Shown piece after piece: positions 43,510 to 64,000 of a stretch of DNA of 64,000 bases. The DNA is from an uncultured Chloroflexia bacterium (GTDB taxonomy: Bacteria > Chloroflexota > Limnocylindria > Limnocylindrales > CSP1-4), in assembly GCA_963720825.1 (NCBI GenBank), contig CAVRGY010000009.1, positions 155,665 through 219,664 on the forward strand, in the 5' to 3' direction. Within the stretch, counting starts at the first letter, position 1, and each line of letters opens with the position of its first letter. Both the position numbers and the translations under genes were made by a program. A model generated the notes under the pieces. The model made no database searches. It had not been told where the DNA came from and saw only the letters and a program-made list of their open reading frames with translations.

Positions 43510-46023
43510 TTAGCTGTGCAGCCGCTCGTTGGCCGGGTCGAACAGGGGTGTCGCGCCCGCGACGGCGACGGTCACCGGGTAGCGCTCGCCCATGTACTGC
43601 ACTGCGAGCCTGGTGCCCCTGACCGCGAGCTCCACCGGCAGGTAGGCCATCAGGAGGTGCCTGCCGACCGACGGCCCGGCGCCCGCGCTGGTCACGTACG
43701 AGCGGCGACCGCGGGCGTCGGTGATCGGCCGGCCATCGGGCGTCAGGATGGGCTCGCGGCCGAGCATGTAGCGCCGGGTGCCGTCGCTCGAGGTGTGGTC
43801 GTCGACGGTGAGCGTGCACAGCAGCGAGACGGGAGGCTCGGCGCGCTGCCGGAGGTACGCATCCCGGCCCACGAACTCGGCGCGCTTCACGCTGGGACGG
43901 GCGAGGCCGGCCTCGACGAGCGTGTGGTCGAGATCGAGCTCCGCGCCATACGCGCGATAGCCCTTCTCGAGCCGCGCGCTGGAGAAGATCACGGACATCC
44001 CGGCGGCGATGGCCCCCAACGGCCGGCCGGCCTCCCACAGCGTGTCCCACAGGTGGCCGCCCAGCTCGATCGGCGCGAACAGCTCCCAGCCCAGCTCGCC
44101 GACGTACGACAGCCGGTTGGCGAGGACGGCGACGCCATCGATGTCGAGCGGCCGGCAGGTGGCGAACGGGAACGCCTCGTTGGACAGGTCGGCGCGGGTC
44201 ACCGTCGACAGGATGTCGCGCGCGCGAGGCCCCCACAGCCCGATCGTGGTCCAGGCCGACGTCACGTCGGTGAGCTGCGCGGTCCCGTCGTCCGGGAGGT
44301 GGTCGGTGAACCACTTCTTGTCGCGCATGCCCATGCCGCCACCGGTCACGACCCGGTACAGGTCGCGCCCCACGTGCATGACCGTGAGGTCCGCGACGAT
44401 CCCGCCGTTGTCATCGAGCAGCGGCGTGTAGACCGTCCGGCCGATCGGCGCCTCGATCCGGTTGACGCACAGGCCCTCCAGGAACGCGAGCGCTCCGGGT
44501 CCGCTGATGTCGAACATCGCGAACGTGGTGAGGTCGATGAGCGCGGCGCGGTCGCGCATCGCGAGATGCTCGGCGGCGGTGACCGGCGACCACCAGCGCG
44601 CGTCCCATTCGGCCGGCCGATCCGTCACCCGGTCGCCGTACCCGGCGACGAGCGGCGCATTGGAGGCGTACCACATCGGGCACTCCCAGCCGGCGACCTC
44701 GAACATCACCGCGTCCAGCGCCAGCTCGCGGTCGTACATCGGGGGCACCCGGATGCCGCGGTCCGAGGCCCACTGCTCTGACGGGTGGACGATGCCGTAG
44801 AACTTGTTGAACGCCTCGTTGACGCGAGCCGTGGCGTGGGTCCACGTCCGCTGATGCGGGTAGAAGCGGGCGATGTCGGCGGCGTGGAGGTCGATCTCGA
44901 GCGGCAGGCCGCTCATCCGGCGGGCGATGTTCTCGGTGATCGCGGGCGCCTCCTTGATCCATACCGCCGCCACCGACCACAGCCCCGCCACCTCGGGCGA
45001 CTCGCCCAGGACCGGGCTCCAGTCGGGCGTGACCGAGAGCAGGCCGTTGATCGCGTACTGCTCGCCGACCCGCTCGTCGCCCAGGATCTCGGGGATCAGC
45101 TCCAGGGCGTCCTCGTACTGCGGCTCGAAGTCCTCCTTGGTGAACGGCAGCTCGGTGGGCGACAGGACCGAGTCCTCGATCGACGGGATCTCGTCGGGGT
45201 GGAGCAGGATCGGCCGGTGGGCGTAGGAGCCGATCTCGAGCTGGCTGCCGTTCGGCCGCTCGTACATCAGGCTGTCCATGTCGCGCAGGATCGGGTAGGC
45301 CTGCTCTCCGCGAACATCGGCGAACCGCGGCACCGGGCCAACGCTGACGAACTGGTGGACGGTCGGGACGAGCGGGATATGGGCGCCGGCCATCTCCGCG
45401 ATCCGGGGACTCCAGACGCCACAGGCGACGACGATCGTATCGGTCTCGATCGTGCCGGCCGTGGTCCGCACGGCTGCGACCCGGCCGTCGACGACGTCGA
45501 TGCCGGTGACCTCGGTGCGGGCCATGATCGACAGGGCGCCCATGTCCACGGCCGCCTCGCGCATCAGCGTGCCGGCGCGGACCGAGTCCACGACCCCCGC
45601 GCTGGGCGTGTACCAGCCGCCCAGGATCACGGTCTCGTCGAGATACGGGATGATCGCCTTGACCTCGGCCGGGGTCTTCAGCTCCGACTCGATCCCCCAC
45701 GACGTGGCGAGGCCCTGGCGGCGCGCCAGCTCGGCCATCCGCTCCGGCGTCCGGGCGACCTCCATGCCGCCGCACCGGGTGAACACGCCCAGCTCGGTGA
45801 ACTGGCGGATCGACTCGACGGTGAGCGCCGATTCCTCCTTGGTGCCGTCGACGGGGAAGCAGAAGTTCGACGCATGCCCGGTGGATCCGCCCGGGTTCGG
45901 CAGCGGGCCCTTGTCCACCAGGACCATGTCTCGCCAGCCGAGTCTGGCGAGGTGCCAGGCCATGGCATTGCCGACGATCCCGGCGCCGATGATCACGGCC
46001 CTCGCGCGCGTGGTGCTGTCCAT
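43510..46023 (-). CDS. FAD-dependent oxidoreductase fused to GcvT-like folate-binding domain (dimethylglycine oxidase-like, paralogue A)
   Basis: Intact 837 aa. It carries 'AVIIGAGIVGNAMA', 'GGSTGHASNF' and a C-terminal aminomethyltransferase fold ('YVGELGWELF', 'RLEKGYRAYG'). Confidence 0.85.
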   Translation of the reverse strand: MDSTTRARAVIIGAGIVGNAMAWHLARLGWRDMVLVDKGPLPNPGGSTGHASNFCFPVDGTKEESALTVESIRQFTELGVFTRCGGMEVARTPERMAELARRQGLATSWGIESELKTPAEVKAIIPYLDETVILGGWYTPSAGVVDSVRAGTLMREAAVDMGALSIMARTEVTGIDVVDGRVAAVRTTAGTIETDTIVVACGVWSPRIAEMAGAHIPLVPTVHQFVSVGPVPRFADVRGEQAYPILRDMDSLMYERPNGSQLEIGSYAHRPILLHPDEIPSIEDSVLSPTELPFTKEDFEPQYEDALELIPEILGDERVGEQYAINGLLSVTPDWSPVLGESPEVAGLWSVAAVWIKEAPAITENIARRMSGLPLEIDLHAADIARFYPHQRTWTHATARVNEAFNKFYGIVHPSEQWASDRGIRVPPMYDRELALDAVMFEVAGWECPMWYASNAPLVAGYGDRVTDRPAEWDARWWSPVTAAEHLAMRDRAALIDLTTFAMFDISGPGALAFLEGLCVNRIEAPIGRTVYTPLLDDNGGIVADLTVMHVGRDLYRVVTGGGMGMRDKKWFTDHLPDDGTAQLTDVTSAWTTIGLWGPRARDILSTVTRADLSNEAFPFATCRPLDIDGVAVLANRLSYVGELGWELFAPIELGGHLWDTLWEAGRPLGAIAAGMSVIFSSARLEKGYRAYGAELDLDHTLVEAGLARPSVKRAEFVGRDAYLRQRAEPPVSLLCTLTVDDHTSSDGTRRYMLGREPILTPDGRPITDARGRRSYVTSAGAGPSVGRHLLMAYLPVELAVRGTRLAVQYMGERYPVTVAVAGATPLFDPANERLHS

Positions 46024-46196
46024 CCGTCGCCTGCCCTCGTCGACCCCGGGTCCGCGCCGGCCCGATGCTCGAGGCCCGGCCGGCGTCCGCCGACCTGCCC
46101 GGGGACCTACAGTATGGAGACCCTGCCGCCCGGGCCCGCCGTCCCATCCGACCCGCCCGAGAGGGGACCAACGTCATCGGTGCGAGGGTGTCTGCC

Positions 46197-47436
46197 ATGA
46201 AGGTCGCCGTCATCGGAACCGGGATCATCGGGCTGGCGACGGCGTACAGCCTCGCGAAGCGCGGCGCCGAGGTGGTGCTCGTCGGAGACCGCGCGCCGGG
46301 CAGCGGCGCGTCGAGCAACAACGCGGGCTGGGTGGTCCCGGCCGAGAGCGGACCGGTGCCGGCGTCCCGGCGTCGTGCTCCAGACGATGCGCTGGATGCT
46401 CCACGCCGACAGCCCGGTCTACGTCCGACCCGAGGCGAGCCCCGGCTTCGTCCGGTTCATGGCCGGGATGCTCCGCGCCTGCAATGCGACGGCGTACCGG
46501 CGCGCGTTCGAGGCGACCAGCCGGCTTGCCGCGGGGACGATGGACGAGCTCGACGCATGGGCCGCGGACGGCCTGGTGTTCGAGCTGCACGCGGACGGCG
46601 AGGTGCGCGCCTACCTCGACCCCGCCGAGCACCGCGCGGCGGCCGCGGACCTGGCGCCGTACGAGCAGGCCGGGTTCGAGCCGGCGTCGCTGACCGGCGA
46701 CGAGGCCCGGGCCACGGTCCCCGAGCTGTCCGATGCCGTGGTCGGGGCGATCCGCTTCCCGAACGAGCGCCATGTCCGACCGGCCACGGTCGTGAGCGCG
46801 CTCGTCGCCCGGCTCGGGGCGCTCGGCGCGGAGTGGGAGGACGGGGCGGTCACCGCGGCGTGGGCGCTGCCGTCGGGTGGTGCGGAGCTCCGCGGCGCCT
46901 TCGGCTCGGTGGTCGCGGATGCCGTGGTCATCGCCGCCGGCGCCTGGAGCGCCGGCATTGCCCGGCTGTTCGGCGTGCGGCTGCCCATCCGCCCGGGCAA
47001 GGGATACAGCGTCGACTACGTGCCGGCGCAGCTCGCGATGGGGCCCGTCGTCATGCTCTCGGAGGTCCACTGTGCCGTGACCCCGCTCGATGGCGCGACC
47101 CGGGTCGCGGGCACGATGGAGTTCGGCGGTCTGGACGAGCGGATCTCCCCGGTCCGCCTGCGCGCGATCCGTCTTGCCCCCGGCCGGTACCTCCGGTCCT
47201 GGGATCCGGATGCGCCGTCGCTCGCACCCAGCGCCGGGCTGCGACCCATGACCCCCGACGGCATCCCGGTCATCGGACGCCTGCGGCCGTACCAGCACGT
47301 GTACGTCGCGAGCGGGCACGCGATGCTCGGCCTCACCCTTGCGCCGCGGACCGGGGCCACACTCGCGTCGATGATCCTCGACGGCATCGAGCCCGATGTC
47401 CTCGCGCCGTTCAGCCCGCGACGGTTCCGCGCCTGA
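46197..47436 (+). CDS. D-amino-acid dehydrogenase-like FAD oxidoreductase, one frame break near 46365
   Basis: 'MKVAVIGTGIIGLATAYSLAKRG...SSNNAGWVVP' is followed by 'PGVVLQTMRWMLHADSPVYVRP...' in ORF 46375..47436. 'RPGKGYS' and 'GHAMLGLTLAP' are also present. Confidence 0.75.
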
Positions 47437-47477
47437 GGGGCGACGGGCGCGCCGCGAACCGGCCGGCCCGCCGACGC

Positions 47478-49907
47478 CTATCCGCGCATCCGTGATCCGT
47501 CAGGGTCGTACACCGGGGACTCGATCACCGCACCCGGGCGCCGGACGCCGAGGATCTCGATCTCCAGCGGCGTCCCGGGTGAGGCCAGCTCGACCGGGAG
47601 GTAGGCGAGGCCCAGGGTCATGCCCACGGCATGGCCGGGGGCGGCCGCCCGCAGGTAGTCGACCAGCCGCCCGTCGGAGAGCACCGGCTCGCCGCCTCGC
47701 GGGAACAGGTCCTCGGACGGCTCGAGGTCGATCCGGACCGTGACCAGGCGCCGGCGAACGCCTTCGGCCTGCTGGCGCAGCAGCGCGTCACGCCCGATGA
47801 ACTCGCCCTTGTCGAGCGCGACGAACCGCTCCAGGCCTGCTTCGAGCGGCGTGTACAGCGCCGAGATGTCCGCGCCCCACAGCCGGTAGCCCTTCTCGAG
47901 CCGCAGCGAGTCGAGCGCCCAGTACCCGATGTCGGCCAGGCCGTGCGCCTCGCCGGCCGCGAGCAGCAGGTCGTACAGGGTCCGCGAATCCTCGATCGGG
48001 TGGTGGAGCTCCCAGCCCAGCTCGCCCGTGTACGTGACGCGGAGCGCCCGTACCGGCACCGGGCCGACCTGGATGTCCCGGACAGCCATGAACGGGAAGC
48101 CCGCGTTCGAGAGGTCGTCGTCGGTCACGGCCGCGAGGACGTCGCGCGCGCGCGGCCCGGCGATCGCGAGGACGCCCCAGGCCGCCGTGACGTTCTCCAG
48201 GACCACCGACCCGTCGTCCGGCGCATGCCGGGCGATCCAGTCCAGGTCGTGGGTCTCCGTCCCGGCCGCCGTGATGAGGTAGAACCGGTCCTCGGCCAGC
48301 CGCGACACCGTGACATCGCACCAGATCCCGCCGGCCGGCGTGAGCATCTGGACCAGCGACGCGCGGCCCACCCGCGGCAGCCGGTTGGCGCCGAGACGAT
48401 CGAGCAGCGCGGCGGCGCCCGGCCCCCGGACCTCGTACTTCGCGAAGCTGGTCATGTCCAGCAGACCGGCTCGCTCCCGGACCGCCGCGCACTCGGCCAC
48501 CTGGTACGGCAGCCAGTCAGGCCGGTGGTACGTCGGCCGATTGCCGATCGGCTGACCCTCGGGCACGAAGTACAGCGGGCGCTCCCAGCCGTTGCGGGCG
48601 CCCATCACCGCACCGCGAGCCAGCAGGCGGTCGTACGGCGGGTCCGTCTTGAGCGGTCGGCCGGCGGGGAGCTCCTCGAACGGGTAGGGGATCGCGTACT
48701 CACGTTCGTAGACCTCGCGGGCGCGATCGATCACGAACGGCAGCGCGCTCGCATACGGCCCGAACCGGGCGACATCCAGCTCCCACAGGTTGTCGACCGG
48801 CTGTCCGTCGATGATCCAGGCCGCCGCGTTGTACCCGGCGCCGCCGCTCTGGACGATCCCGTAGCTGAACCCGGTGAGCGCGAAGAGGTTGCGCAGGCCG
48901 GGCACCCAGCCCATCAGCGCGTTGCCGTCCGGCGTGTAGCTGGTGGGGCCGTTGAGCAGCTGCTTCATGCCGGCCGTCTGCAGCACCGGCAGCCGATGCT
49001 GGGCGAGGTCGAGCACGTCGCCGACCTGCTCGAAGTCCGGCGCCAGCAGCTGCTGCCCGAACTCCCGCGGGATCCCGTGCGCAGCCCACGGCTTCGGGTC
49101 GTGCTCATAGGGCCCGACGATCAGGCCGCTGGCCTCCTCGCGGACGTAGAACGACGCCTCCGTGTCCCGGACGACGGGCATCTCCGCGTGCTCGGCGAGG
49201 AGCTCCGGCACGGCGTCGGTGATCAGGTACTGGTGCTCCATGGGCACGATGGGCAGCTCCACCCCGGCCAGCTGGCCGATCTCGCGGCCCCAGATCCCGC
49301 CGGCATTGACCACGATCCCGGCCCGGATCGTCCCGCGCGGCGTGACCACGTCCCATTCGCCGCCCGGCTGCGGCCGCAGCTCCGTGACCGGCGTCTCGAG
49401 CTCGATCTCGGCGCCCAGGTCGCGGGCGCCCCTGGCCATCGCCCGGGTGATGCTGCTCGGGTCGACGTACCCGTCCGTCGGGGTCCAGGCACCGGCGATC
49501 ACGCCGTCCACGTTGACCAGCGGCGCGCGCCGGGCGATCTCCGCGGGCCCGATGAGCTCGTATGGCAGCCCGACGATCTTGGCCAGGCCCGCCTCGTCGC
49601 GGTACTGGTCCATCCGGTCCTGGTCGTGGCCAGCCGGATGCTGCCGACGCCGTGGAAGTCGACGGTCTGGCCGCGTATCCGCCTCCATCCGCCGGAACAG
49701 GTCGACGCCGTACATCAGCAGCGATGTCACGTTGATGCTGGCGTTGAACTGCGTGCACAGGCCCGCGGCGTGCCACGTCGAACCCGCGGTGAGATCGTGC
49801 TTCTCGAGCAGGACGGTGTCCGTCCAGCCACGCTTCGCGAGGTGATAGAGGAGGCTGCAGCCGACGGCCCCGCCACCGATCACCACGACCCGCGCATCTG
49901 TCCTCAT
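47478..49907 (-). CDS. dimethylglycine/sarcosine dehydrogenase-like FAD oxidoreductase-GcvT fusion (paralogue B), compensated frame-break pair at about 49674 and 49621
   Basis: ATG 49907 follows GGAGGTGG. It carries 'VVVIGGGAVGCSLLYHLA', 'AGSTWHAAGL', 'YTGELGWELH' and 'RLEKGYRLWG'. The part of ORF 47478..52136 upstream of 49907 is antisense shadow. Confidence 0.85.
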   Translation of the reverse strand: MRTDARVVVIGGGAVGCSLLYHLAKRGWTDTVLLEKHDLTAGSTWHAAGLCTQFNASINVTSLLMYGVDLFRRMEADTRPDRRLPRRRQHPAGHDQDRMDQYRDEAGLAKIVGLPYELIGPAEIARRAPLVNVDGVIAGAWTPTDGYVDPSSITRAMARGARDLGAEIELETPVTELRPQPGGEWDVVTPRGTIRAGIVVNAGGIWGREIGQLAGVELPIVPMEHQYLITDAVPELLAEHAEMPVVRDTEASFYVREEASGLIVGPYEHDPKPWAAHGIPREFGQQLLAPDFEQVGDVLDLAQHRLPVLQTAGMKQLLNGPTSYTPDGNALMGWVPGLRNLFALTGFSYGIVQSGGAGYNAAAWIIDGQPVDNLWELDVARFGPYASALPFVIDRAREVYEREYAIPYPFEELPAGRPLKTDPPYDRLLARGAVMGARNGWERPLYFVPEGQPIGNRPTYHRPDWLPYQVAECAAVRERAGLLDMTSFAKYEVRGPGAAALLDRLGANRLPRVGRASLVQMLTPAGGIWCDVTVSRLAEDRFYLITAAGTETHDLDWIARHAPDDGSVVLENVTAAWGVLAIAGPRARDVLAAVTDDDLSNAGFPFMAVRDIQVGPVPVRALRVTYTGELGWELHHPIEDSRTLYDLLLAAGEAHGLADIGYWALDSLRLEKGYRLWGADISALYTPLEAGLERFVALDKGEFIGRDALLRQQAEGVRRRLVTVRIDLEPSEDLFPRGGEPVLSDGRLVDYLRAAAPGHAVGMTLGLAYLPVELASPGTPLEIEILGVRRPGAVIESPVYDPDGSRMRG

Positions 49908-49965
49908 CGACCCACCTCCATCCGTGCCGGGGTGTGCCTCGTCGTCGTTCCGAGCACCGTCCCCG

Positions 49966-49982
49966 CCATTGTAATAATATGG
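49966..49982. promoter_or_regulatory. AT-rich imperfect palindrome, candidate TetR operator or -10 region
   Basis: 'CCATTGTAATAATATGG' sits in the divergent region between paralogue B and the TetR gene. It is flanked by 'AGCACC'...'GGTGCT'. Confidence 0.3.
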
Positions 49983-50029
49983 TGCTATGAGCGTCAGCAG
50001 CGTCGACCCGGCGACCCGCCCGCGGGACC

Positions 50030-50649
50030 GTGGGCGCCGGGCGGACCGCCGAGCACCGCGAGCGCCAGCGCGAGCGGATCCTCGCCGCCGCCGAGCACCT
50101 CCTCGTGGACAGCGGCGTCGAGCGGATGCGCCTGCGCGACGTCGCGGAGGCCGCGGGCGTGTCCATCGGGACCGTCCAGCACTACTTCGACACCCGGGAC
50201 CGGCTGGTCGCCGAGCTGTTCGACTGGTCGGGCCGCCGCCGCCTGGAGGCCTGGACCTCGATGGAGCCCGGTGACGTGACCCCTGGCGCCGGATCGAGAC
50301 CCTGCTCCCCACGCGCTCGCGGAGCCGCTCCTGCGGCGGAGCCGGATCTGGGTGGAGTTCCTGGCGATGGCCCGCGACGAGGGGCTGCGGGCCGAGCTCG
50401 CCGGCTTCTACGAGGCGTGGCGGCGCGCCGTTCCGCGAGGCGATCGAGCAGGGATCGCCGGCGGGCTGTTCCGCCCGGCGATGTCCCGAGCGCCTCGTGG
50501 ACCTGCTGATCATGGGCGTGGACGGGGCGGAGGTCGCGACCGTCCTCGCGGCGCCGGGGACCTCGCGCGACCAGCTGCTGTCGTCGCTCGTGGACGCGGC
50601 GCGCACGCTCCTCGGCGTCGGACCAGATCCCGGCGAACCGCCGGCCTGA
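50030..50649 (+). pseudogene. TetR-family transcriptional regulator, at least 4 frame breaks
   Basis: The HTH region reads 'RERILAAAEHLLVDSGVERMRLRDVAEAAGVSIGTVQHYFDTRDRLVAELF'. Later blocks 'WVEFLAMARDEGLRAELAGFYEAWRRA', 'FREAIEQG' and 'ERLVDLLIMGVDGAEVA...' are spread over all three frames. Confidence 0.65.
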
Positions 50650-50684
50650 CGGCGGCGCTCCAGCACACGAGAGGTGTCGACCCG

Positions 50685-53162
50685 ATGACGACCGCCACCC
50701 CGCCCGCGCCCGACGCGGCGCCGTTCCCGACCCAGGCGCGCGTCGTCGTGATCGGCGGCGGCATCGTCGGCGCGAGCGTGCTCTACCACCTGACGGAGCG
50801 CGGCTGGACCGACGTGGTCCTGCTCGAGCGCAAGACGCTCACCTCCGGCACGACCTGGCATGCCGCGGGGCTGGTGGGCCAGCTCCGGGCGACCTACAAC
50901 ATGAGCCTGCTCGCGAGCTACGCGAAGGACCTGTTCCGCGAGCTCGAGCGGCGCACCGGCGACGGCACGGGCTTCGAGCAGCACGGGTCCCTGCTGATCG
51001 CGTCGACGCCCGGTCGCTGGGAGGAGATCCGGCGCGGCGCGTCGATGGGCCACCTCATCGGCGTCGACCTCGAGCTCGTCGACCGCGAGCGGGTCGGCGA
51101 GATGTGGCCGCTGCTCGACACCTCCGGCATCCTGGGCGCCGCCTTCATCCCGGGCGACGGGATGGCGAACCCCACCGACGTGACCCAGGCGCTGGCCAAG
51201 GCCGCGCGCATGGCCGGCGCCCGGGTGTTCGAGCAGACGAAGGTGACCGGCGTGCTCCGTCGGGACGGCCGCGTCAGCGGCGTGTCCACCGAGCGCGGCG
51301 ACATCGCCTGCGAGTACGTCGTGAACTGCACCGGCATGTGGGCGCGCGAGCTGGCCGGCCAGAGCGACGTCGTGGTCCCGCTCCATGCGGCGGAGCACTT
51401 CTACCTGGTCACCGAGCCGGTCGAGGGGCTCACCCCGGACCTGCCGGTCCTGCGCATGCCCGACGACGCGACCTACGCCCGCAACGAGGCGGGCAAGCTG
51501 ATGGTCGGGTTCTTCGAGCCCGGCGCCAAGCCGTGGGCGACGGACGGGATCCCGGAGGATGCCGAGTTCCTCACCCTGCCCGAGGACTGGGACCACCTCG
51601 AGCCGTGGATCCTGCGGGCGACGAAGCGCCTCCCCGTGTTCGGACGGGTGGGCATCCAGCTGTTCTTCAACGGACCCGAGAGCTTCACGCCCGACGACCG
51701 GTACATCCTGGGCGAGGCGCCGACGCTGGGCGGCTACTTCGTCGCCGCCGGCTTCAACTCCGTGGGCTTCGCGTCGGGCGGCGGCGCCGGGCGCGCGGTC
51801 GCCGACTGGGTCGTGGACGGCCACGCGCCGATGGACCTGTGGGAGGTGGACATCCGGCGGTTCATGCCCTTCCAGCGCAACCGCCGGTATCTCTACCAGC
51901 GGACGACCGAGACCCTGGGGCTGCTGTACGAGATGCACTGGCCGTTCCGGCAGATGGAGACCTCGCGCGGCGTCCGCCGCTCGCCGCTCCACGACCGGCT
52001 CGCGGCGCGCGGCGCGTGCTTCGGCGAGGTGTCCGGCTGGGAGCGCGCGAACTGGTACGCCCCCGAGGGCGTCGAGCCGCGCTACGAGTACTCGTACGGG
52101 CGCCAGAACTGGTTCCCGTACTCGGCCCAGGAGCATCGCGCCGTCCGCGAGGCGGTCGGCCTGTTCGACCAGACGTCGTTCGGCAAGATCCTGGTCCAGG
52201 GCCGGGACGCGGAGCGGGAGCTCAACCGGGTGTGCGCGGGCGACGTCGCCGTCGAGCCCGGGCGGCTGGTCTACACGCCGTGGCTCAACGAGCGCGGCGG
52301 GATCGAGTCGGACGTGACGATCACGCGGCTCGCGGACGACCGGTTCATGGTCGTCACGACCGGCACCTCGACGATGCGCGACCTCGACTGGCTGCGCCGG
52401 ACGATCGATCCCGAGGCGCGGGTCGCGGTCACCGACGTGACCTCCGCCGAGACGGTGATCAGCGTCATGGGCCCACGCTCACGCGAGCTGCTGGCCTCGC
52501 TGTCGGACGCGGACCTGTCCAACGCGGCGTTCCCGTTCGGGACCGCGCGCGAGATCGACCTCGGCTTCGCTTACGCGCGCGCGGCGCGGGTGACGTACGT
52601 GGGCGAGCTGGGCTGGGAGCTGTACGTGCCGATGGAGTTCGCGACCCACGTGTACGACACGATCGTGGCCGCCGGCGACGCCTTCGGCCTGCGCCATGCC
52701 GGCTACCACGCGCTGGACTCGCTGCGGATCGAGAAGGCGTACCGCCACTGGGGCCACGACATCACCGAGGAGGACACGCCGCTCGAGGGCGGTCTCGGCT
52801 TCACGGTGGGCTGGGACAAGCCCGGCGGGTTCATCGGCCGCGAGGCGCTCCTGCGCCAGCGCGAGGCGGGGTTCTCGCGGCGTCTCGCGGTCGTGATCCT
52901 CGACGATCCAGAGCCGCTGATGTACCACAACGAGCCCATCCTGCGGGACGGCCGCATCGTCGGCCGCGTCAGCTCCGGCGCCTTCGGGCACACCATCGGG
53001 CGCTCGATCGGACTGGGCTACGTGACCCGCGAGGACGGGCCGGTGACCTCGGACTGGCTGGCGGCCGGCCGGATCGAGGTCGAGGTCGCCCTCGAGCGGC
53101 AGCCCGCGACCGCGTCCCTGCGGGCGCCCTACGATCCGGGCAACGCTCGGATCCGGGCGTAG
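50685..53162 (+). CDS. dimethylglycine/sarcosine dehydrogenase-like FAD oxidoreductase-GcvT fusion (paralogue C)
   Basis: Starts at ATG 50685 and is intact at 825 aa. It carries 'VVVIGGGIVGASVLYHL', 'SGTTWHAAGL', 'YVGELGWELY' and 'RIEKAYRHWG'. Confidence 0.9.
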   Translation: MTTATPPAPDAAPFPTQARVVVIGGGIVGASVLYHLTERGWTDVVLLERKTLTSGTTWHAAGLVGQLRATYNMSLLASYAKDLFRELERRTGDGTGFEQHGSLLIASTPGRWEEIRRGASMGHLIGVDLELVDRERVGEMWPLLDTSGILGAAFIPGDGMANPTDVTQALAKAARMAGARVFEQTKVTGVLRRDGRVSGVSTERGDIACEYVVNCTGMWARELAGQSDVVVPLHAAEHFYLVTEPVEGLTPDLPVLRMPDDATYARNEAGKLMVGFFEPGAKPWATDGIPEDAEFLTLPEDWDHLEPWILRATKRLPVFGRVGIQLFFNGPESFTPDDRYILGEAPTLGGYFVAAGFNSVGFASGGGAGRAVADWVVDGHAPMDLWEVDIRRFMPFQRNRRYLYQRTTETLGLLYEMHWPFRQMETSRGVRRSPLHDRLAARGACFGEVSGWERANWYAPEGVEPRYEYSYGRQNWFPYSAQEHRAVREAVGLFDQTSFGKILVQGRDAERELNRVCAGDVAVEPGRLVYTPWLNERGGIESDVTITRLADDRFMVVTTGTSTMRDLDWLRRTIDPEARVAVTDVTSAETVISVMGPRSRELLASLSDADLSNAAFPFGTAREIDLGFAYARAARVTYVGELGWELYVPMEFATHVYDTIVAAGDAFGLRHAGYHALDSLRIEKAYRHWGHDITEEDTPLEGGLGFTVGWDKPGGFIGREALLRQREAGFSRRLAVVILDDPEPLMYHNEPILRDGRIVGRVSSGAFGHTIGRSIGLGYVTREDGPVTSDWLAAGRIEVEVALERQPATASLRAPYDPGNARIRA

Positions 53163-53182
53163 CCGGACGGATGATCGCGGGC

Positions 53183-53210
53183 GCCGGCTCGGGGCTACCC
53201 GAGCGCCGGC
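53183..53210. terminator. imperfect hairpin at the convergent gene junction
   Basis: 'GCCGGCTCGGG-gcta-CCCGAGCGCCGGC' has a 2-nt bulge. It overlaps the last codons of the permease gene. Confidence 0.25.
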
Positions 53211-55260: not shown

Positions 55261-55267
55261 GGGTAGC

Positions 55268-55972: not shown

Positions 55973-55988
55973 CCTTCCCTCCGGGCTT

Positions 55989-56717: not shown

Positions 56718-56738
56718 ACGCCTCTTCGCCTGGGTGAC

Positions 56739-56765
56739 GGGGGGCCGGAGCGAGCCCGGCCCCCC
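56739..56765 (-). promoter_or_regulatory. strong intercistronic GC hairpin after the substrate-binding-protein gene
   Basis: 'GGGGGGCCGG-agcgagc-CCGGCCCCCC' forms a perfect 10-bp all-G/C stem. It starts about 29 nt downstream of the SBP stop and lies before the livG-like start. Confidence 0.45.
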
Positions 56766-56793
56766 GAGTCTGCTGGATCAGGTCGATGGATGG

Positions 56794-58149
56794 TCAGGGC
56801 TTCTGCTGGATGACTCCCTTGGCGACCTCGGGCGGCCAGACCACTGTCGGGTTGCCGTCCATGTACTGGAGGGCAGGGAAGATGTAGTGGCCCTTGCCGA
56901 CGACCGGGTCAGGGATCGAGTCCTGCGAGTAGTCGTAGTTGGACATGATGATCCCGTCCGTGTACGTCAGCTTGCCCGTCCAGAGCTGTTCCTGGGCGGT
57001 CTTGTAGAGGGATTCGCTCGTGATCTCACAGGAGTCGGCGAGCGTCTGGTTCATGATCTTGATGAAGAAGTTGGAGAAGTCGAAGGACAGGCCGGCCGCC
57101 GACGGGCTCGGCTTGCTGCCGTACTTGGCCTCGTAGTCAGTTGCGAACTTCTGCGCCGCATCCGACGCGAATTGCGGGATCTGGTCGACGACGTAGTTCG
57201 ACGCGGTTCCGCTGAGCTTGTACCAGTCGCCGATCCAGCCGAGGCCGTCGGCCACGACCAGCGCCTTGACCCCGGCGTCATCGACGGCCTTGAGGAACGA
57301 GGCGATCGAGGCAGGGATCGTGGTGGTGCCCGCGATCAGCGGGATGTTGTCGTTCTTGTAGCGCGACACGATGGCCGAGAAATCGGTCTGCGTGGTGGGG
57401 AAGTAGTCCTCGCTCACGACGGTCCAGCCGACAGCCTTGAGCTGGTCTTCGAGGCCCGTCCCGAACGAGCGGCCCCAGTCGGTGTCCTCGCCGTAGATCG
57501 CGACCTTCTTCTCGGCGGGCGTATAGCTGCCGGCCGTGATCGCGTCCTCGATGGCCTGGACGTAGCCGATGGTGAGCTTGGCCGGATCCGGCCAGCCCTT
57601 CGAGGTCCAGTAGCCGTACTTCGCCTGGTTGCTGTTGAACTTCTCGTTCACGACACCGGTGGCGCCCATCGCGAAGAAGTGCGGGATCTTGTACTTCGCG
57701 GTGACCTCCATCTGGGCGACCGCGACCGAGCTGTGCCAGCCCAGGATCCCGGCGATGATCTTCTGGCCGGCGACGGCCTGCTCATAGGCGGCGGCGCCCT
57801 TCGCCGGATCCGACTGGTCGTCGATGTAGACGGGCTCGATGGTGTAGGGCCCGACCTTCCAGGAGATCGCGTCGAACGCCATGGACGAGGCGTTCTTCAT
57901 CTCCTCGCCGGTCAGGGCATTGGGGCCGGTGAACGGGCCCTCGATGCCGATCTTGATGGTTGCGGGCGCCGGCTCGGTGCAGTTGGCGGTACCCGAGCTG
58001 CCGGGTGCCGTCGAGGCCGGGGCGGCGGACTCCGGGGCGCTGCTCGCACCCGCGGTCGGGGACGACGATCCGCTGCCGCAGGCGCTCACCATGAGCACCG
58101 CAGCAACAGCGAGACCGGCGATCCGGAACCTGGTTCCAGTGTTGATCAC
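56794..58149 (-). CDS. ABC transporter substrate-binding lipoprotein (Leu/Ile/Val-binding protein family fold), ligand unknown
   Basis: GTG 58149 follows AGGAGGAG. The lipobox is 'LMVSAC', followed by a Ser/Ala/Pro linker. The type-I periplasmic-binding-fold pattern 'IKIGIEGPFTGPNA' is present. Confidence 0.8.
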   Translation of the reverse strand: MINTGTRFRIAGLAVAAVLMVSACGSGSSSPTAGASSAPESAAPASTAPGSSGTANCTEPAPATIKIGIEGPFTGPNALTGEEMKNASSMAFDAISWKVGPYTIEPVYIDDQSDPAKGAAAYEQAVAGQKIIAGILGWHSSVAVAQMEVTAKYKIPHFFAMGATGVVNEKFNSNQAKYGYWTSKGWPDPAKLTIGYVQAIEDAITAGSYTPAEKKVAIYGEDTDWGRSFGTGLEDQLKAVGWTVVSEDYFPTTQTDFSAIVSRYKNDNIPLIAGTTTIPASIASFLKAVDDAGVKALVVADGLGWIGDWYKLSGTASNYVVDQIPQFASDAAQKFATDYEAKYGSKPSPSAAGLSFDFSNFFIKIMNQTLADSCEITSESLYKTAQEQLWTGKLTYTDGIIMSNYDYSQDSIPDPVVGKGHYIFPALQYMDGNPTVVWPPEVAKGVIQQKP

Positions 58150-58170
58150 TGTGCTTCTCCTCCTGTCCGT

Positions 58171-58188
58171 CCAATCCAGGCGGATTGG
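58171..58188 (-). promoter_or_regulatory. hairpin in the EtfD-SBP intercistronic region
   Basis: 'CCAATCC-aggc-GGATTGG' forms a perfect 7-bp stem 14 nt upstream of the SBP RBS on the mRNA. Confidence 0.35.
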
Positions 58189-58203
58189 TACAACCCACGC
58201 AAG

Positions 58204-60286
58204 TCAGATGTCGTCTCTGCCCCCCTCCCGGTCGTCGGAGACGGCGGCGGTCGCCGCTCCCGATGAGGCTGCCGTCAGGGCGGCGGCGGGACGCTGCCGG
58301 CCTCGTTCGACGGCTTCGACCAGCAAGGTGGCGACATCCTTGACCTCGAGCCCGCCGTCCGTCGCTCGCATCCCGTCATCGAGCATGACGGTGCAGAACG
58401 GGCAGGCGACGGCGAGCGTTCCCGCCCCGGTGGCGGTGGCCTCGCGGGCGCGCTCCTCGTTGATCTGGCCGGCGCGCTCCTCGAGCCACATGTGGGCACC
58501 GCCGGCACCGCAGCAGAAGGTCCGCTCCTCTCGGCGCGCCATCTCGAGCGGGCGGCCGACGGCCGCCACCAGCTCCCGCGGCTCGGAGCGGACGTCGTTG
58601 TGGCGGGCCAGGTAGCACGAGTCGTGGTAGGTGATCGTGTCCGCGCTCGCGGCCGGCGACAGGCGCCCGTCGCGCACCAGCTCCGCCAGCAGCTGCGTGT
58701 GGTGCATGACCTCGTACCTGCCGCCGAAATCCGGGTACTCGTTGGCCAGCGTGTTGAAGCAGTGCGGGCAGGTGGTCACGATCCTGGTCACCTTCGCCTC
58801 GCCCAGGGTGTCGACGTTCTGCCTGGCCAGTGCCTGGAAGGTGTACTCGTCGCCCATCCGCCGGGCGGGATCGCCGGTGCAGCTCTCCCGCGGGCCGAGG
58901 ATCGCGAAATCGACCTGCGCCTCCTTGAGCAGCTTCGCGGTCGAGATCGCGCCGACCCGGGCACGCTCATCGAACGCCGGCGCGCAGCCGACCCAGAACA
59001 GGACGTCGGGCGGAGCGTCGCCGGGCTCGAGGACGCGGATGTCGAGGCCCTCCGCCCAGTCCACCCGCTCGGTCGCGGCGCCGCCCCACGGGTTGCCCGT
59101 GCGCTCCAGGTCCCGGAGCATCGCCGCGCCCTCCGCGGGCACGCGAGTGTCGACCATGACCAGGTTGCGCCGGAGGTCCACGATGTGGTCGATGTGCTCG
59201 ATCCCCACCGGGCACTCGCGGACGCACGCGCCGCAGGTCACGCAGTCCCACACCGTCTCATCGGCGACGGCGTTGGGGACGAGCGGGCTGCCGGCGAAGG
59301 ACCCGTTGCCCGCGGCGGCCAGCATCTGGTGGCCCTCGCGGTAGAGCTGGTCGCGGAGGCCCATGACCACGAGCTTGGGCGACAGGTTCTTGCCCGTGAA
59401 GAACGCCGGGCAGGCGTCCTGGCAGCGCCCGCACTCGGTGCAGGTCATGCCATCGACCATCTGCTTCCAGGTCATGTCCCGGATCGTCCCCATCCCGAAC
59501 CGGATCTGGTCCTCGGGAACGCTTGGGATCGTCGAACCGGAGCGGCTCCAGGCGGCCTCGCCGGCGGGTGCGCTCGAAGAAGATGTTGAACGCGACGATC
59601 AGGGTGTGGAGATGCTTGGTGTACGGGATGTACAGCAGGAACGCGAGGATCAGGATCGCGTGGACCCACACCACGCCGCGCTCGAGAACCTCGGTGGCCG
59701 CGCCGGCCGGGAGGAGGCCCGCGATGGCCGTCGAGATCGGCGACCACGCCGCCGGGTACTCGTTGTAGCCGAGCGCGACCCGCGACGCGTGCCAGATGAA
59801 CAGCGTGATCGCGATCGCCGCCTCGAACAGCAGGATGTTGTAGGCCTGCTGGAGGTAGCTGCCGACGAACCGGACGGGCCGCTGCCCCAGCCGGATCGCG
59901 AACGCGATGCTCACGCCGACCAGGGTGCCCAGCGCGAACAGGTCGGCCATCAGCGCGAACCAGCCCTGCTCGGACAGCCAGGGAATGGTCCAGTGCGGGC
60001 TCACCGCGCCCAGCCACGACATGACGATGGTGGGCAGCAGGACCAGGAAGCCCCAGAACAGCAGCAGGTGCATGACCCCGGGGATCGGGCGCAGGAACAG
60101 CTTGGACTGGGCGAGCACCCGGGGCACCTCGCGCCCGGTCCGCTGCGGCAGCTCGTCGAAGCGGGCCGAGGCGCGGCCGTGCATCACGAGCCGCGCGAGG
60201 TACAGCGCGCGCCGGGCAAACAGCCCGACGAACGTCAGCCAGACGGCAAGGAACAGGATCCCCGAGATGAGGATCCCGGTATCCAT
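58204..60286 (-). CDS. etfD: membrane-anchored Fe-S oxidoreductase (EtfD / HdrD-GlpC-like: TM domain + 2x[4Fe-4S] + 2 CCG domains), one frame break near 59515
   Basis: The N-terminal ~250 aa is polytopic (ORF 59258..60286). It is followed by 'CTECGRCQDACP', 'CVTCGACVRECP', 'TTCPHCFNTL' and 'FCCGAGGAHMW' in ORF 58204..59493. The gene lies 3 nt downstream of etfA. Confidence 0.75.
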
Positions 60287-60289
60287 GCC

Positions 60290-61252
60290 CTAGGCCCCGC
60301 GCACCCGGCGGATCTCCGCGCTGATGGCGGGGAGCACCTGGTGCAGGTCGCCGATCACGGCGTAGTCGGCGGTGGCCATGATCGGCGCCTCCGCGTCCCT
60401 GTTGATCGCGAGGATCTTCTTCGATGCCTTGCAGCCGGCCATGTGCTGGGTGGCGCCGCTGATCCCGCACGCGATGTACAGGTCGGGCGCGATCTTGGTC
60501 CCGGTCTGGCCGACCTGGTCGGTGTGCGAGCGCCAGCCCGAGATGGTCACCGCCCGGGAGCAGCCGACGGCGGCGCCCAGCAGCCCGGCCAGCTCCTCGA
60601 CGGGCCCGAACCCGGCCTCGGAGCCCACGCCCCGCCCGCCGGACACGACCACCCTGGCGTCGGCCAGCGAGATGCCGCCCACGGCGGCGGGGATCCGCTC
60701 GATCGCACGGACCACGAGATCCGCGTCGTCCAGCGTCGGGGCGAACGTCTCGACCGTTGCCGCGCCACCCGTCTGCGTCGCGGCGACGGTATGCGGCGCG
60801 ACCGTCATGATCGCGCGATCCGCGTGGATCACGGCCTCCTCGAGCAGGCTGCCGCCCCACCGCTGGCGGGTCACGGCAACCGGGCTGCCGGGGGTCGCGC
60901 GGGTGCAGTTCGCGGCAAACGGCAGGCTCGCCCGCGCCGCGACCCGGGCCAGGACGGTGTTGCCGTGCTCGGATCCGGGGCCCACGACGGCCGACGCGTC
61001 GAGGCTGGTCGCGAGATCGAACAGGACGCGCGCCACGGCATCGGGCGCGGCGGCGCCGAGCGCCGGGTGCTGCGCCACGTGGACCTGTGACGCGCCCCAC
61101 GCGCCAAGCCCGCCCGCCGCGGCCTCGTCACCGATGAGCAGCGCATGGACGGCGCCGCCGTCGGCCAGCTGACCGGCCAGCGCGAGTGCCTGGAGGGAGA
61201 CCTCGTCCGCGGCGCCGTCGGCGGTCGTGAGGTAGGCGAGCACGGTCGGCAT
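60290..61252 (-). CDS. etfA: electron transfer flavoprotein alpha subunit
   Basis: Starts at ATG 61252. It carries 'VVSGGRGVG', 'VGQTGTKIAPDLYIACGISGATQHMAG' and 'ILAINRDAEAPI'. Confidence 0.9.
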   Translation of the reverse strand: MPTVLAYLTTADGAADEVSLQALALAGQLADGGAVHALLIGDEAAAGGLGAWGASQVHVAQHPALGAAAPDAVARVLFDLATSLDASAVVGPGSEHGNTVLARVAARASLPFAANCTRATPGSPVAVTRQRWGGSLLEEAVIHADRAIMTVAPHTVAATQTGGAATVETFAPTLDDADLVVRAIERIPAAVGGISLADARVVVSGGRGVGSEAGFGPVEELAGLLGAAVGCSRAVTISGWRSHTDQVGQTGTKIAPDLYIACGISGATQHMAGCKASKKILAINRDAEAPIMATADYAVIGDLHQVLPAISAEIRRVRGA

Positions 61253-62016
61253 CACAGCACCCCCAGCGTGCCGAGCACGTCCACCACGGCCGGGGCGGCA
61301 TCGGCCCCCTGGCCGAGGATCACCGCCTGCTTCACCCGTCCCTCGGGGACCACCAGCCGGACCAGCTCGAGGCGCTGCTCGGGGCGGACCGGCGTCGAGG
61401 TGGCGACCGGCTTGCTCTTGGCGCGCAGCCGCCCCGGCACGGACGGGAAGCGCGGCACGTTGAGGCCCTCGAGGACCGCGACCACCGCGGGCAGCGGCAG
61501 CTCGTACACGTCGCGCCCGCCCGATACCTCCTGCTCGCAGCGGACGGCGGACGCGGTCGCGGACATCCCCTTGATCCCGGTCACGGTGGGCCGGCCGAGG
61601 GCTCGGCCGAGCCGGACGGCGGCCTGGTAGCCGCCGGAGTCGCCCGCCTCGTTGCCCATCAGGACCAGGTCGAACGGGCCGGATGCAGCCTCGTCGGCCC
61701 GAACGGCCTCCACGATCGCACCGACCGTCGACTCCGGGTCCCATTCGCCGCCGTCGGTGACGAGGTGGATCGCGCGCGCGACGCCCAGGGCCATCGCGTC
61801 GCGGAGCTGCTCGATCGCTTCGGCTGGCCCGAGGGTGAGCACGACCGCCTCGCCGCCGTGGGCCTCGATCAGGCGCACCGCCTGCTCCACGGCGCACTCC
61901 TCGTGCGGGCCGATCGCAAAGCCCAGGTGTTTCGTGTCGACGGCACGAGCGTCCGCGGTCAGCGTGATCCGGCCACCGACGGCCGGCACGCTCTTGATGC
62001 ACACGAGAACCTTCAT
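61252..62016 (-). CDS. etfB: electron transfer flavoprotein beta subunit
   Basis: Starts at ATG 62016. It carries 'MKVLVCIKSVP' and 'DLVLMGNEAGDSGGYQ'. Its stop overlaps the etfA start (TGATG). Confidence 0.9.
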   Translation of the reverse strand: MKVLVCIKSVPAVGGRITLTADARAVDTKHLGFAIGPHEECAVEQAVRLIEAHGGEAVVLTLGPAEAIEQLRDAMALGVARAIHLVTDGGEWDPESTVGAIVEAVRADEAASGPFDLVLMGNEAGDSGGYQAAVRLGRALGRPTVTGIKGMSATASAVRCEQEVSGGRDVYELPLPAVVAVLEGLNVPRFPSVPGRLRAKSKPVATSTPVRPEQRLELVRLVVPEGRVKQAVILGQGADAAPAVVDVLGTLGVL

Positions 62017-62018
62017 CG

Positions 62019-64000
62019 CTACGCCCGGATCCGCAGGTTCTCGGGGTCGAACAGGGGCCGCGATCCGGCCACCGCGACCGTCACCGGGTAGCGCTCGGCA
62101 AAGTACTCGACGAACAGGTGGTTGCCTTCGACGGCGTGCTCGGGCGGCAGGTACGCCAGCAGCACGTACTGGCCCGTCGAGGGGCTCGCCCCCGCGGAGG
62201 TCACGTAGGACCGCCGGCCCTTCGCGTCCGAGAGCGGCGTGCCATCCGCGGTCACGATCGGCTGCCGGCCGAGCGGGTAGCGCTTCTCGCCGCTGGCCGA
62301 CGTGTGGTCGTCCACGGTCAGCGTGCACAGGATGGCCGCCGGTTCCTCGCCCAGCTGGCGCAGGACGGCGTCGCGACCGACGAAGTCGGCGCCCTTGACC
62401 TTGACCGGCGCCATGCCCGCCTCGACCACGTTGTAGTCGCCGTCGAGCTCGGCGCCGTAGGCGCGATAGCTCTTCTCGAGCCGGCCCGTGGACACGTAGA
62501 CGCCGATCCCGCAGGCGGTGAGCCCGTGCGGCCGTCCCGCTTCCCACAGCTCGTCCCACAGGCGTTGGCCCTGCTCCATCGGCACGTACAGCTCCCAGCC
62601 CAGCTCGCCGACATACGAGATCCGCGATGCCAGCACCAGCTGGGACCCGATCTCGACGGTGCGGCAGGTGCCGAACCTGAACGCCTCGCTGGACAGGTCC
62701 GCCCGGGTGATCGACTGCACGATGTCCCGCGCGCGAGGGCCCCCACAGCCCGATCGTGGTGTACGCGGTGGACACGTCGACGATCGCGGCATCGGCGGGC
62801 ATGTGGTCACGGAACCACTTGAGGTCGCTCATGCCGTGCGCGCCACCGGTGACCACCCGGAAGGTCGACTCGTCGAGGCGCATGATCGTGAGGTCGCTCT
62901 TGAAGCCGCCCTCCTGCGACAGGACCGGCGTGTAGACCACGCGCCCGACCGGGACGTCCATCTGGCGCATCGCGACCGACTGGACGCCCGCCAGCGCGCC
63001 CGGGCCCACGATGTCGAACTTCATGAACGACGACAGGTCGAAGATGCCGGCCTGCTCGCGCATCGCGAGGTGCTCGGCGTTGATGATCGGCGACCACCAC
63101 CGGGCGTCCCACTCGTTGGGCCGGGTCACGACGCCGTACTTCTCGACCAGCGGCGCGTTGGACTCGAACCACTGGGGGCGCTCGAAGCCGGCGGCCTCGA
63201 AGAACCGCGCGCCGGCGGCCGTGTGCCAGTCGTGCATCGGGGACCGTCGGATCGGGCGGTCGGACTCGTACTGCTCGGCCGGGTGGACGATGCCGTAGGT
63301 CTTGGGGAACGCCTCGAACGCGCGGGCCTTGACGTGCTGGCGAGTCTTCTGGTGGGCGTGGAAGCGCGCCACGTCCGACGCGCCAAGGTCGATCGAGGGC
63401 TCGCCGTGGACCATCCACTCGGCGACGCACCTGCCGACCGCGGGACCCTCCTTGACCCATACGGCGGCCGCCGACCACAGGCCCTTGACCTCGGGTGTCT
63501 CGCCCAGGACGGGCATGCCGTCCGGGGTCAGCGCGATGAGCCCGTTGATCGCGTACTTCACGCCCACGGACTCGTCGCCCACGATCTCGGGCATCAGCTC
63601 CAGCGCGTCGCCCATCTGGGGGTCGAAGTCGTCCTGCGTGAACGGGAACTCCGTGGGCGACAGCGCCGCCTGCTCGATCGACGGGATGTCCTCCGGGTCG
63701 TGGAGGATCGAGCGGTGCGCGTAGGACCCGATCTCGAGCCCGATGCCGTCCTGGCGCTCGTACATCAGGACGTCCATGTCGCGCACGATCGGGAACTCGA
63801 TCGCCCTGGACGATCGCTCGAAGCGGGGGACGGGACCGACATCGATCATCTGGTGCACGACCGGCGTCAGCGGGATGTGCGAGCCGGCCATCTCGGCGAT
63901 CATCGGCGCCCACACGCCGCACGCGATCACGACGTACTCGGCCTCGACGGTGCCCCGGGTGGTCCGGACGGAGCGGACCCGGCCACCGGTGGTGTCGAAC
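62019..64000 (-). CDS. FAD oxidoreductase-GcvT fusion (dimethylglycine oxidase-like, paralogue D), 5' end outside window, one frame break near 62745
   Basis: It is close to paralogue A. Compare 'YPVTVAVAGSRPLFDPENLRIRA*' here with 'YPVTVAVAGATPLFDPANERLHS*' in A, and 'RRSYVTSAGASPS' here with 'RRSYVTSAGAGPS' in A. The stop is 2 nt before the etfB start. The ORF remains open at nt 64000. Confidence 0.85.

Follow-up and report, generated by a model that had tools for sequence, protein, structure and literature searches.

In soil, glycine betaine, choline and the methylated compounds derived from them serve as major osmolytes and as major nitrogen and one-carbon sources. The closest described enzymes for their oxidative demethylation are the O2-dependent dimethylglycine oxidase (DMGO, EC 1.5.3.10) of Arthrobacter globiformis (1pj5/3gsi), the mammalian dimethylglycine dehydrogenase (DMGDH, EC 1.5.8.4; rat 4p9s/4pab, human 5l46), which works in a system with electron-transfer flavoprotein (ETF) and a membrane ETF:quinone oxidoreductase (ETF-QO), and the 4-methylaminobutanoate oxidase (MABO) of Arthrobacter nicotinovorans pAO1. 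Glycine betaine itself is demethylated by the MtgBCD system, represented by MtgB of Desulfitobacterium hafniense (2qne) and by aerobic Ruegeria pomeroyi, in which, according to a study of 2025, betaine catabolism requires MtgB, MtgC, MtgD, RamA, DUF1638 and MetF2 (PMC12478193). Here, we analyzed a 64-kb stretch of DNA (hereafter the window) from contig CAVRGY010000009.1 of an uncultured bacterium of the Limnocylindrales (Chloroflexota), in which four genes fusing the DAO, FAO_M, GCV_T and GCV_T_C domains lie within 43.5–64 kb, together with genes for EtfA and EtfB, an EtfD homologue and an ABC importer. With a probability of roughly 60%, this island would encode a modular catabolism for glycine betaine and the N-methylglycines derived from it, and probably for further N-methyl amines, in a soil bacterium of the Limnocylindria; in essence, it is most likely an ordinary catabolic cluster leading from glycine betaine down to glycine.

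Reading frames in this G+C-rich DNA (∼71% across the window) were set from third-position G+C content and from translations, and related loci (L001–L080) were searched by tblastn with the window proteins; L081, L082, L085 and L086 are further relatives. All four Pfam domains score above their gathering thresholds in paralogue A (43510–46023, minus strand, an intact open reading frame (ORF) of 837 amino acids), paralogue B (47478–49907, minus strand, an open ORF of 809 amino acids) and paralogue C (50685–53162, plus strand, an intact ORF of 825 amino acids). Paralogue D (62019 to beyond 64000, minus strand) has only its C-terminal 659 of 835 residues in the window, its first 176 codons lying past the end; its domains are spread over two frames and are complete in the full-length D protein P0121 (835 amino acids), which matches the frame-corrected window D at 100%. 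The original prediction, which had described four such fusions that all keep the folate-dependent domain, is borne out in this respect. The same holds for the flavin-site motifs that it had read (GGSTGHASNF in A, STWHAAGL in B and TTWHAAGL in C), for the near-identical C-termini of A and D (ERYPVTVAVAG(A/S)(T/R)PLFDP) and for a DMGO-like flavin site of D outside the window, which P0121 carries as GGSTGHASNF.

A neighbour-joining tree (791 columns, 100 bootstraps) was built with 40 homologues from the related loci, DMGO and rat DMGDH (both transcribed from printed alignments) and a MABO-like gene; mammalian sarcosine dehydrogenase (SARDH) and authentic MABO are outside it, the latter represented by a proxy from an Arthrobacter nicotine-type plasmid, the purU-mabO-folD gene of pNtRootC45, presumed to be MABO from the gene order of pAO1. 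A-type genes (bootstrap 100) and D-type genes (bootstrap 80) are joined at 100, and the two together are sister at 100 to the DMGO group, in which second paralogues of L006 and L013 (55% identity to DMGO) are also placed. B groups with rat DMGDH and with a paralogue found in relatives, E, at 100, and C with a Paracoccus homologue and the MABO-like gene, likewise at 100. Pairwise identities amount to 60% between A and D, 36–37% between A or D and DMGO, 41% between B and rat DMGDH, 44% between C and the MABO-like gene and 41% between B and C. Scores against the PDB follow the same division, with 520 bits for A and 509 for D to DMGO (1pj5) as opposed to 280 and 301 to DMGDH, 672 bits for B to DMGDH (rat 4p9s) as opposed to 356 to DMGO, and 446 (DMGDH) and 389 bits (DMGO) for C. 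The four paralogues are thus placed in three well-supported clades (A+D; B; C), and not to the two types predicted originally; the pairing of A with D stands, and B and C, which had been taken together, are separated. The phylogeny had been proposed as a check of the prediction, which would have been refuted had all four paralogues fallen together with one characterised specificity; this is not what the tree shows.

A and D share with DMGO the four-domain architecture, His48, His225/Tyr259 and Asp552, as well as a flavin-site motif of the GGST.HA type, in which two residues are inserted compared with DMGDH, and DMGO is the best PDB match of both. They differ from it in the motif itself (STGHASNF, where DMGO has STSHAPGL) and in the genes behind them, since D-type genes are always followed by etfBA, which implies ETF and not O2 as the acceptor. 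At 36–37% identity and in a clade of their own at bootstrap 100, A and D are not grouped with the DMGO orthologues, and they form an uncharacterised clade that is sister to this oxidase. B can be aligned end to end with DMGDH, shares its STWHAAGL motif and groups with it, rat DMGDH being the only reference in a tree that does not include SARDH; DMGDH is equally close to E as to B, so that the clade does not separate dimethylglycine from sarcosine specificity. Whereas mammalian ETF is oxidised by the mitochondrial ETF-QO, the island of the bacterial B holds an HdrD-like EtfD, and the EtfAB and EtfD genes lie ∼8–12 kb from B. C has the architecture and the T(S/T)WHAAGL motif of MABO and groups with the pNtRootC45 gene at bootstrap 100 and 44% identity, whereas the purU/folD/nicotine-pathway context is not seen around C. 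Its identity is higher (58%) with uncharacterised 'FAD-dependent oxidoreductases' of alphaproteobacteria, including the Paracoccus homologue; the surroundings of its closest annotated homologue in Paracoccus denitrificans, an XRE regulator and unrelated neighbours, are uninformative.

In MAFFT alignments with 1pj5 and 4p9s, the flavinylation histidine for covalent 8-alpha-FAD attachment, the catalytic pair His225/Tyr259 and the folate-site Asp552 (DMGO numbering) are kept in A–D; position 552 is a glutamate in rat DMGDH and in paralogue E. All four paralogues thus retain the catalytic residues, which supports the prediction of a tetrahydrofolate (THF)-dependent oxidative N-demethylation. Together with the accompanying ETF, EtfD homologue and importer, this agrees with the N-demethylation island that had been predicted. 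No NCBIfam equivalog model covers any of the four, their matches being at the domain level and far under the cut-offs. JGI/KO-based names call B-type proteins 'dimethylglycine dehydrogenase' and C-type proteins '4-methylaminobutanoate oxidase', consistent with the tree, and remain generic for D-type proteins.

The two branches of the A/D clade differ in distribution. By tblastn, L001–L004 are orthologous to A and L005–L080 to D. A orthologues (79–88% amino acid identity) occur only in L001–L004 and L081, each beside a DadA-like gene. In a scan of one genome per species, relatives of A at 80–89% come from Chloroflexota metagenome-assembled genomes (MAGs) labelled Limnocylindrales or Limnocylindria, and those at 60–68% from other Limnocylindrales, Dormibacterota, Gaiellales and Solirubrobacterales. 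On the D side, cultured bacteria with the D-etfBA-etfD operon include Gaiella occulta, whose P0239 is 77% identical to D, Conexibacter and Solirubrobacter. Multiple DAO-GcvT paralogues per replicon are frequent elsewhere, with up to four matches on rhizobial plasmids. Two Limnocylindrales loci carry true DMGO orthologues (55% identity, motif GGSTSHAPG) beside D-etfBA (L006, 1719–4241; L013, 15980–18667), and this coexistence makes it probable that DMGO-type and D-type enzymes are not functionally equivalent. Within the tree, the window D is placed with D-types of Dormibacterota and Solirubrobacterales, which have an adjacent etfD, and not with other Limnocylindrales D-types, which have none; this neighbour-joining topology hints at a possible lateral transfer of a D-etfBA-etfD module.

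In the window, D is the first gene of a co-directional string on the minus strand, D-etfB-etfA-etfD, followed by genes for a substrate-binding protein (SBP), two ATPases and two permeases. EtfB (61252–62016) and EtfA (60290–61252) are recognised by Pfam (ETF and ETF_alpha) and by NCBIfam, and the start and stop codons of etfA and etfB overlap those of the neighbouring genes. Among related loci with enough downstream sequence, etfB is found directly behind the D-type gene in 69 of 69 cases, from three phyla, and etfA behind etfB in 65 of 65; etfD follows in 26 of 63. This invariant linkage argues for D-type genes being ETF-linked dehydrogenases and, by context, against O2 as the physiological acceptor of D. 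Within 10 kb of the D-type gene, 34 of 76 loci hold at least one Mtg component and 54 of 76 at least one betaine-related gene, a class that takes in aldehyde dehydrogenase, GMC choline-dehydrogenase-like and OpuA genes. According to flanking-ORF clustering and Pfam, the recurrent neighbours are a BetB-like aldehyde dehydrogenase, a GMC choline-dehydrogenase-like protein, a betaine ABC transporter of the OpuA type, an IclR regulator, MTHFR and a corrinoid set (B12-binding protein, DUF1638, pterin-binding methyltransferase and RACo activase). Dormibacterota loci add formate-THF ligase, a choline-kinase-like gene, an amino-acid permease and an Fe-alcohol dehydrogenase. Next to A-type genes, too, there are MTTB/RACo/pterin/B12 genes or GMC and OpuA genes.

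Dormibacterota loci L036–L042 show a further arrangement, in which D-etfB-etfA-etfD is followed by a DAO-GcvT paralogue of a clade of its own (bootstrap 100, motif STCHAAGL) and then by formate-THF ligase and a choline/ethanolamine-kinase-like gene. The upstream side holds genes for an aldehyde dehydrogenase, an Fe-alcohol dehydrogenase and an amino-acid permease. This gene set suggests a route from an amino alcohol to N-methylglycines with no obvious betaine demethylase.

EtfD passes electrons from ETF to menaquinone. The EtfD homologue of the island (58204–60286, minus strand, frameshifted) lies directly behind etfA and has a membrane domain followed by a 4Fe-4S domain (Pfam Fer4_8/9/10) and two CCG domains, the order of the mycobacterial protein (Rv0338c), which likewise stands beside etfBA. 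It scores 471 bits against 9ojn, the EtfD structure of M. smegmatis (PMC13083937), and differs from it in length (693 amino acids vs 1042 in the solved chain) and in the enzymes to which it is linked, amine demethylases as opposed to acyl-CoA dehydrogenases. Downstream of and co-directional with D-etfBA-etfD lies a LivKGFHM-type importer, with an SBP (56794–58149; Peripla_BP_6), two ATPases (55989–56717 and 55268–∼55972; ABC_tran/BCA_ABC_TP_C) and two permeases (54223–55260 and 53195–∼54223; BPD_transp_2), all on the minus strand; these family calls were made on the 85–93%-identical genes of L081 and L082. ETF, the EtfD homologue and the importer had all been named in the original prediction, as had a DadA-like gene and a TetR regulator, and all of them are present.

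The sequence past the window end is provided by L082 (ENA ERZ25039495 contig_40181), which is 99.6% identical to window positions 52017–64000. Upstream of D, this contig carries a divergent GntR gene ∼0.8 kb past the window end and, starting ∼1.8 kb past it, an Mtg set in the order B12-binding protein, DUF1638, PF13769 ORF, Pterin_bind protein, RACo, MTTB-family protein (513 amino acids), MTHFR and DinB_2. Against MtgB (2qne, 9yce), the MTTB protein reaches 414 bits, and against the uncharacterised 4yyc, 736 bits; the best NCBIfam model of the corrinoid protein is MtgC (under the cut-off), and the pterin protein passes the NCBIfam model for methyl-THF:corrinoid methyltransferase. Every component of MtgBCD and RamA is present (a non-Pyl MttB-family protein, a corrinoid protein, a pterin-binding protein and a reductive activase), together with the DUF1638 and MTHFR of the described system, and such a set recurs near D-type and A-type genes of other genomes. 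The differences are that the L082 MttB protein is nearer to 4yyc than to proven MtgB, its use of betaine being predicted, and that the hosts described so far are a marine alphaproteobacterium and an anaerobe, as opposed to soil Chloroflexota. The original prediction had found no betaine-demethylating enzyme and had called the substrates not obvious. The former is true of the window (by tblastn) and misleading for the locus, the absence being an edge effect; the latter did not hold, for the Mtg set upstream of D makes glycine betaine the obvious entry substrate and dimethylglycine and sarcosine the obvious intermediates. The PF13769 ORF of L082 (6894–7361, ∼67.2–67.6 kb in window numbering; 155 amino acids, Pfam 'Virulence_fact') lies between DUF1638 and the pterin gene; homologues occur in 15 of 76 D-type loci, and it has no NCBIfam match at E ≤ 1e-5.

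Between A and the D operon, the island is made of exchangeable parts. A DadA/glycine-oxidase-like FAD oxidoreductase (46197–47436, plus strand, Pfam DAO) is divergent from A; its NCBIfam score for the D-amino-acid dehydrogenase subfamily is 155 bits, under the cut-off, and its best PDB matches are glycine oxidases at 86 bits. A TetR-family regulator (∼50024–50630, plus strand) lies between the divergent B and the co-directional C. Both genes are frameshifted in the window and intact in relatives at 72–87% amino acid identity. The relatives rearrange these parts. The ABC transporter directly adjoins the A-DadA pair in L002 and L004, where B-TetR-C is absent; in L081 and L003, B is replaced by paralogue E (∼41–42% identical to B, 598 bits to DMGDH), which stands between TetR and C. 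The order is etfD-etfA-etfB-D, GntR, a paralogue and B-SBP-ABC in L085, and etfD-SBP-ABC, C-TetR and B in L086. The same Liv-type transporter always accompanies these enzymes (A, B or D). The island is thus modular, the same parts standing in reshuffled orders in L081, L085 and L086. A search for operator-like inverted repeats gave no match at A/DadA or at D/GntR and no convincing candidate at B/TetR.

Taken together, these results suggest a pathway in which MtgB/C/D would convert glycine betaine to dimethylglycine, the methyl group passing to tetrahydrofolate and being oxidised by MTHFR. DAO-GcvT enzymes would then oxidatively demethylate dimethylglycine and, subsequently, sarcosine, the GcvT domain capturing the iminium carbon as 5,10-methylene-THF and the two electrons flowing from FAD through EtfAB and EtfD to menaquinone. 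D would be the core ETF-linked enzyme for dimethylglycine and/or sarcosine. A, which is restricted to a few Limnocylindria and paired with the glycine-oxidase/DadA-like enzyme, probably serves a neighbouring step, such as sarcosine to glycine followed by further oxidation. B and C, presumably under TetR control, may be exchangeable accessory demethylases that provide redundancy or a wider substrate range, and the Liv-type transporter would import N-methylated amino acids. More tentatively, and with slightly more doubt than confidence, we propose that the whole A/D clade might consist of obligately ETF-coupled dimethylglycine/sarcosine dehydrogenases which, with MtgBCD and EtfD, could form the main aerobic route of betaine respiration in soil Terrabacteria.

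Several observations weigh against a betaine pathway of this kind. The substrates are assigned from homology (36–44% identity to characterised enzymes) and gene neighbourhood alone, and the adjacency of Mtg and D is known from a 99.6%-identical contig of another sample, none of the Mtg-set genes giving a tblastn match inside the 64-kb window. The MttB superfamily also holds enzymes for proline betaine, carnitine, gamma-butyrobetaine and choline, and the substrate of a member cannot be read from its sequence. The nearest characterised relative of C acts on 4-methylaminobutanoate and not on an N-methylglycine, the PDB matches of the Liv-type SBP are weak, and A and D have an oxidase, not an ETF-dependent dehydrogenase, as their closest characterised relative, A-type loci having no adjacent etf genes. 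A different division of labour is one alternative, and an unlikely one in our view. B and the second dehydrogenase-type paralogue (C, or E in relatives) would carry out the dimethylglycine and sarcosine steps, as the 672 bits of B to rat DMGDH and its KO-based name would suggest, and the A/D clade would take another N-methylated compound imported by the Liv-type transporter. Candidates would be an N-methyl amino acid or the product left when another quaternary amine, for example proline betaine, gamma-butyrobetaine or carnitine, is demethylated. The SBP, of the amino-acid/Liv type and not the OpuAC type, is in keeping with this, as are the several quaternary-amine substrates known in the MttB superfamily and the mere 36–37% identity of A and D to DMGO, whose 55% orthologues stand separately beside D-types in L006 and L013. 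However, B- and C-type genes are absent within 10 kb of the D-type gene in most loci, and yet BetB-like aldehyde dehydrogenase, GMC, OpuA and Mtg genes are there, which makes D the constant partner of the betaine genes, and B-TetR-C is dispensable in the close relatives L002 and L004. That A and D are instead O2-dependent oxidases like Arthrobacter DMGO, with etfBA-etfD serving B, C or unrelated dehydrogenases, we consider improbable. The closest relative that is both solved and characterised is indeed this oxidase (1pj5, 509–520 bits), and the A-type genes without adjacent etf would fit. Against it stand the start of etfB a few bases from the D stop, with overlapping start and stop codons in the window, and the etfB gene behind all 69 of 69 D-types, mostly with no B- or C-type gene nearby; without a use of ETF by D, an operon linkage so strict would be difficult to account for.

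A very improbable further alternative is that the island is decaying, with D, EtfD, DadA, TetR and B as genuine pseudogenes and A and C alone functional. In its favour, the window as given has at least seven indels that disrupt reading frames in the region from 46 to 63 kb. The original prediction had given D as one ORF from 62019 and had mentioned no frameshifts; the gene is present, split into two frames by an extra C at 62740 (C5 vs C4). EtfD has an extra G at 59521 that is not in a run, and the DadA-like gene has one extra base at ∼46363 (a C according to the alignment with L001–L004), its counterpart in L081 being intact at 412 amino acids. TetR has at least two frame changes, tblastn with the L081 protein giving three high-scoring segment pairs in three frames, and is intact in L081 and L086 (212 amino acids; Pfam TetR_N and TetR_C_6). 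B carries a compensated double frameshift that leaves the ORF open and garbles residues 79–96 (∼49620–49673); here, the +1 frame gives GQTVDFHGVGSIRLATT, which aligns with DMGDH and with P0292, a protein 98% identical to B. Against decay, D (835 amino acids) and EtfD (693 amino acids) are both intact in L082, where the comparison reveals 44 substitutions and three single-base insertions, all of them extra bases of the window (53191, intergenic, G4 for G3; 59521; 62740). The garbled stretch of B is clean in P0292, albeit with a different frameshift of its own further on. The substitutions comprise 38 synonymous and 6 non-synonymous changes, with 36 at third codon positions, and the D protein is 100% identical to P0121; this substitution pattern reads as purifying selection. 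Further genes of the window, outside the island, are split as well (malate synthase and the large subunit of xanthine dehydrogenase, see below), and contig names of the 'contig_NNNNN' form and MFD MAG relatives point to long-read assemblies. From the intact D, EtfD and B stretch in 98–99.6%-identical contigs and from the synonymous excess of 38:6, we conclude that the indels of the window are consensus errors of a long-read metagenome assembly, and not gene decay. Pseudogene decay was rejected on these intact copies and this pattern, and deliberate or random sequence noise was rejected as well, given that 36 of the 44 substitutions relative to L082 fall at third codon positions.

Different samples yielded at least three long contigs with near-identical versions of the locus (351 kb, with P0241; 272 kb, L082; 243 kb, with P0292), the 351-kb and 243-kb contigs having different frameshifts in B; together they could serve to derive a consensus free of errors. 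P0241 corresponds to B of the window as called, with its garbled stretch. For A, C, the protein of the neighbouring MFS gene and P0241, look-ups by exact sequence matched no record; positions 43.5–52 kb are thus without a near-identical contig comparison, B being compared via P0292. The MFS gene (MFS_1, drug/TRI12-like, 580 amino acids; 41667–43409, minus strand) adjoins A, and its position is taken by MTTB-DinB-HTH in L081 and by other genes in other relatives, which places the left border of the island at ∼43.5 kb.

Upstream of the island, a Pfam scan of ten selected ORFs revealed a purine-catabolism-like cluster (9558–19548) with amidohydrolases (9558–11198 and 11065–12921, the second with a shifted C-terminus at 12401–12826), a xanthine-dehydrogenase-type Mo enzyme with 2Fe-2S and FAD subunits, and a uricase domain (16845–17540). 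The large subunit of the Mo enzyme is split between frames (12864–14378, MoCoBD_1; 14174–15301, MoCoBD_2), as fits assembly-wide indels. Glyoxylate-cycle genes occur near the island at 18388–19143 and 38418–41560. The sole malate synthase ORF identified (18388–19143) covers only the C-terminal half (MS_TIM-barrel profile positions 128–247 and MS_C), which suggests a frameshift; the isocitrate lyase (38418–40409) has an odd Arg/Ala-rich C-terminus and is followed by a LysR regulator whose ORF runs on into low-complexity sequence. If the DadA-like enzyme oxidises glycine, glyoxylate handling could be linked to this reaction. The URO-D family (PF01208), to which methylcobamide methyltransferases such as MtaA/MtbA also belong, is represented by a protein at 25909–27060 (minus strand) that has no adjoining corrinoid protein. 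A tandem ACT-domain protein (ACT_6 and ACT_4; 30818–31420, plus strand) presumably resembles the glycine-cleavage repressor of the GcvR type.

All components of the island are members of described families, and the logic of the overall pathway is known. With paralogue sets common elsewhere, we rank the finding as a variant of known biology. The literature that we found does not describe the A/D clade as separate from its sister, the oxidase DMGO, and strictly linked to etfBA. Nor does it describe soil Chloroflexota, Dormibacterota and Thermoleophilia in which a cobalamin-dependent demethylase for betaine is paired with demethylases coupled to ETF/EtfD. The locus also illustrates that frameshifts of long-read metagenomes can mimic pseudogenes and that a window edge can hide a key enzyme.

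Limnocylindria, Dormibacterota and Thermoleophilia are abundant and mostly uncultured. If the proposed pathway is correct, they would respire betaine-derived methyl groups via a cobalamin-dependent first step followed by ETF/EtfD-coupled demethylases, and betaine turnover in soil would be tied to the availability of vitamin B12 and to the menaquinone pool. An ETF-coupled A/D subfamily would extend this route from marine alphaproteobacteria and anaerobes to Limnocylindria, Dormibacterota, Gaiellales and Solirubrobacterales. In a family that pipelines label merely 'FAD-dependent oxidoreductase' or 'GcvT family protein', the D-etfBA linkage would then provide a simple genomic marker by which dehydrogenase-type members may be told from oxidase-type members.

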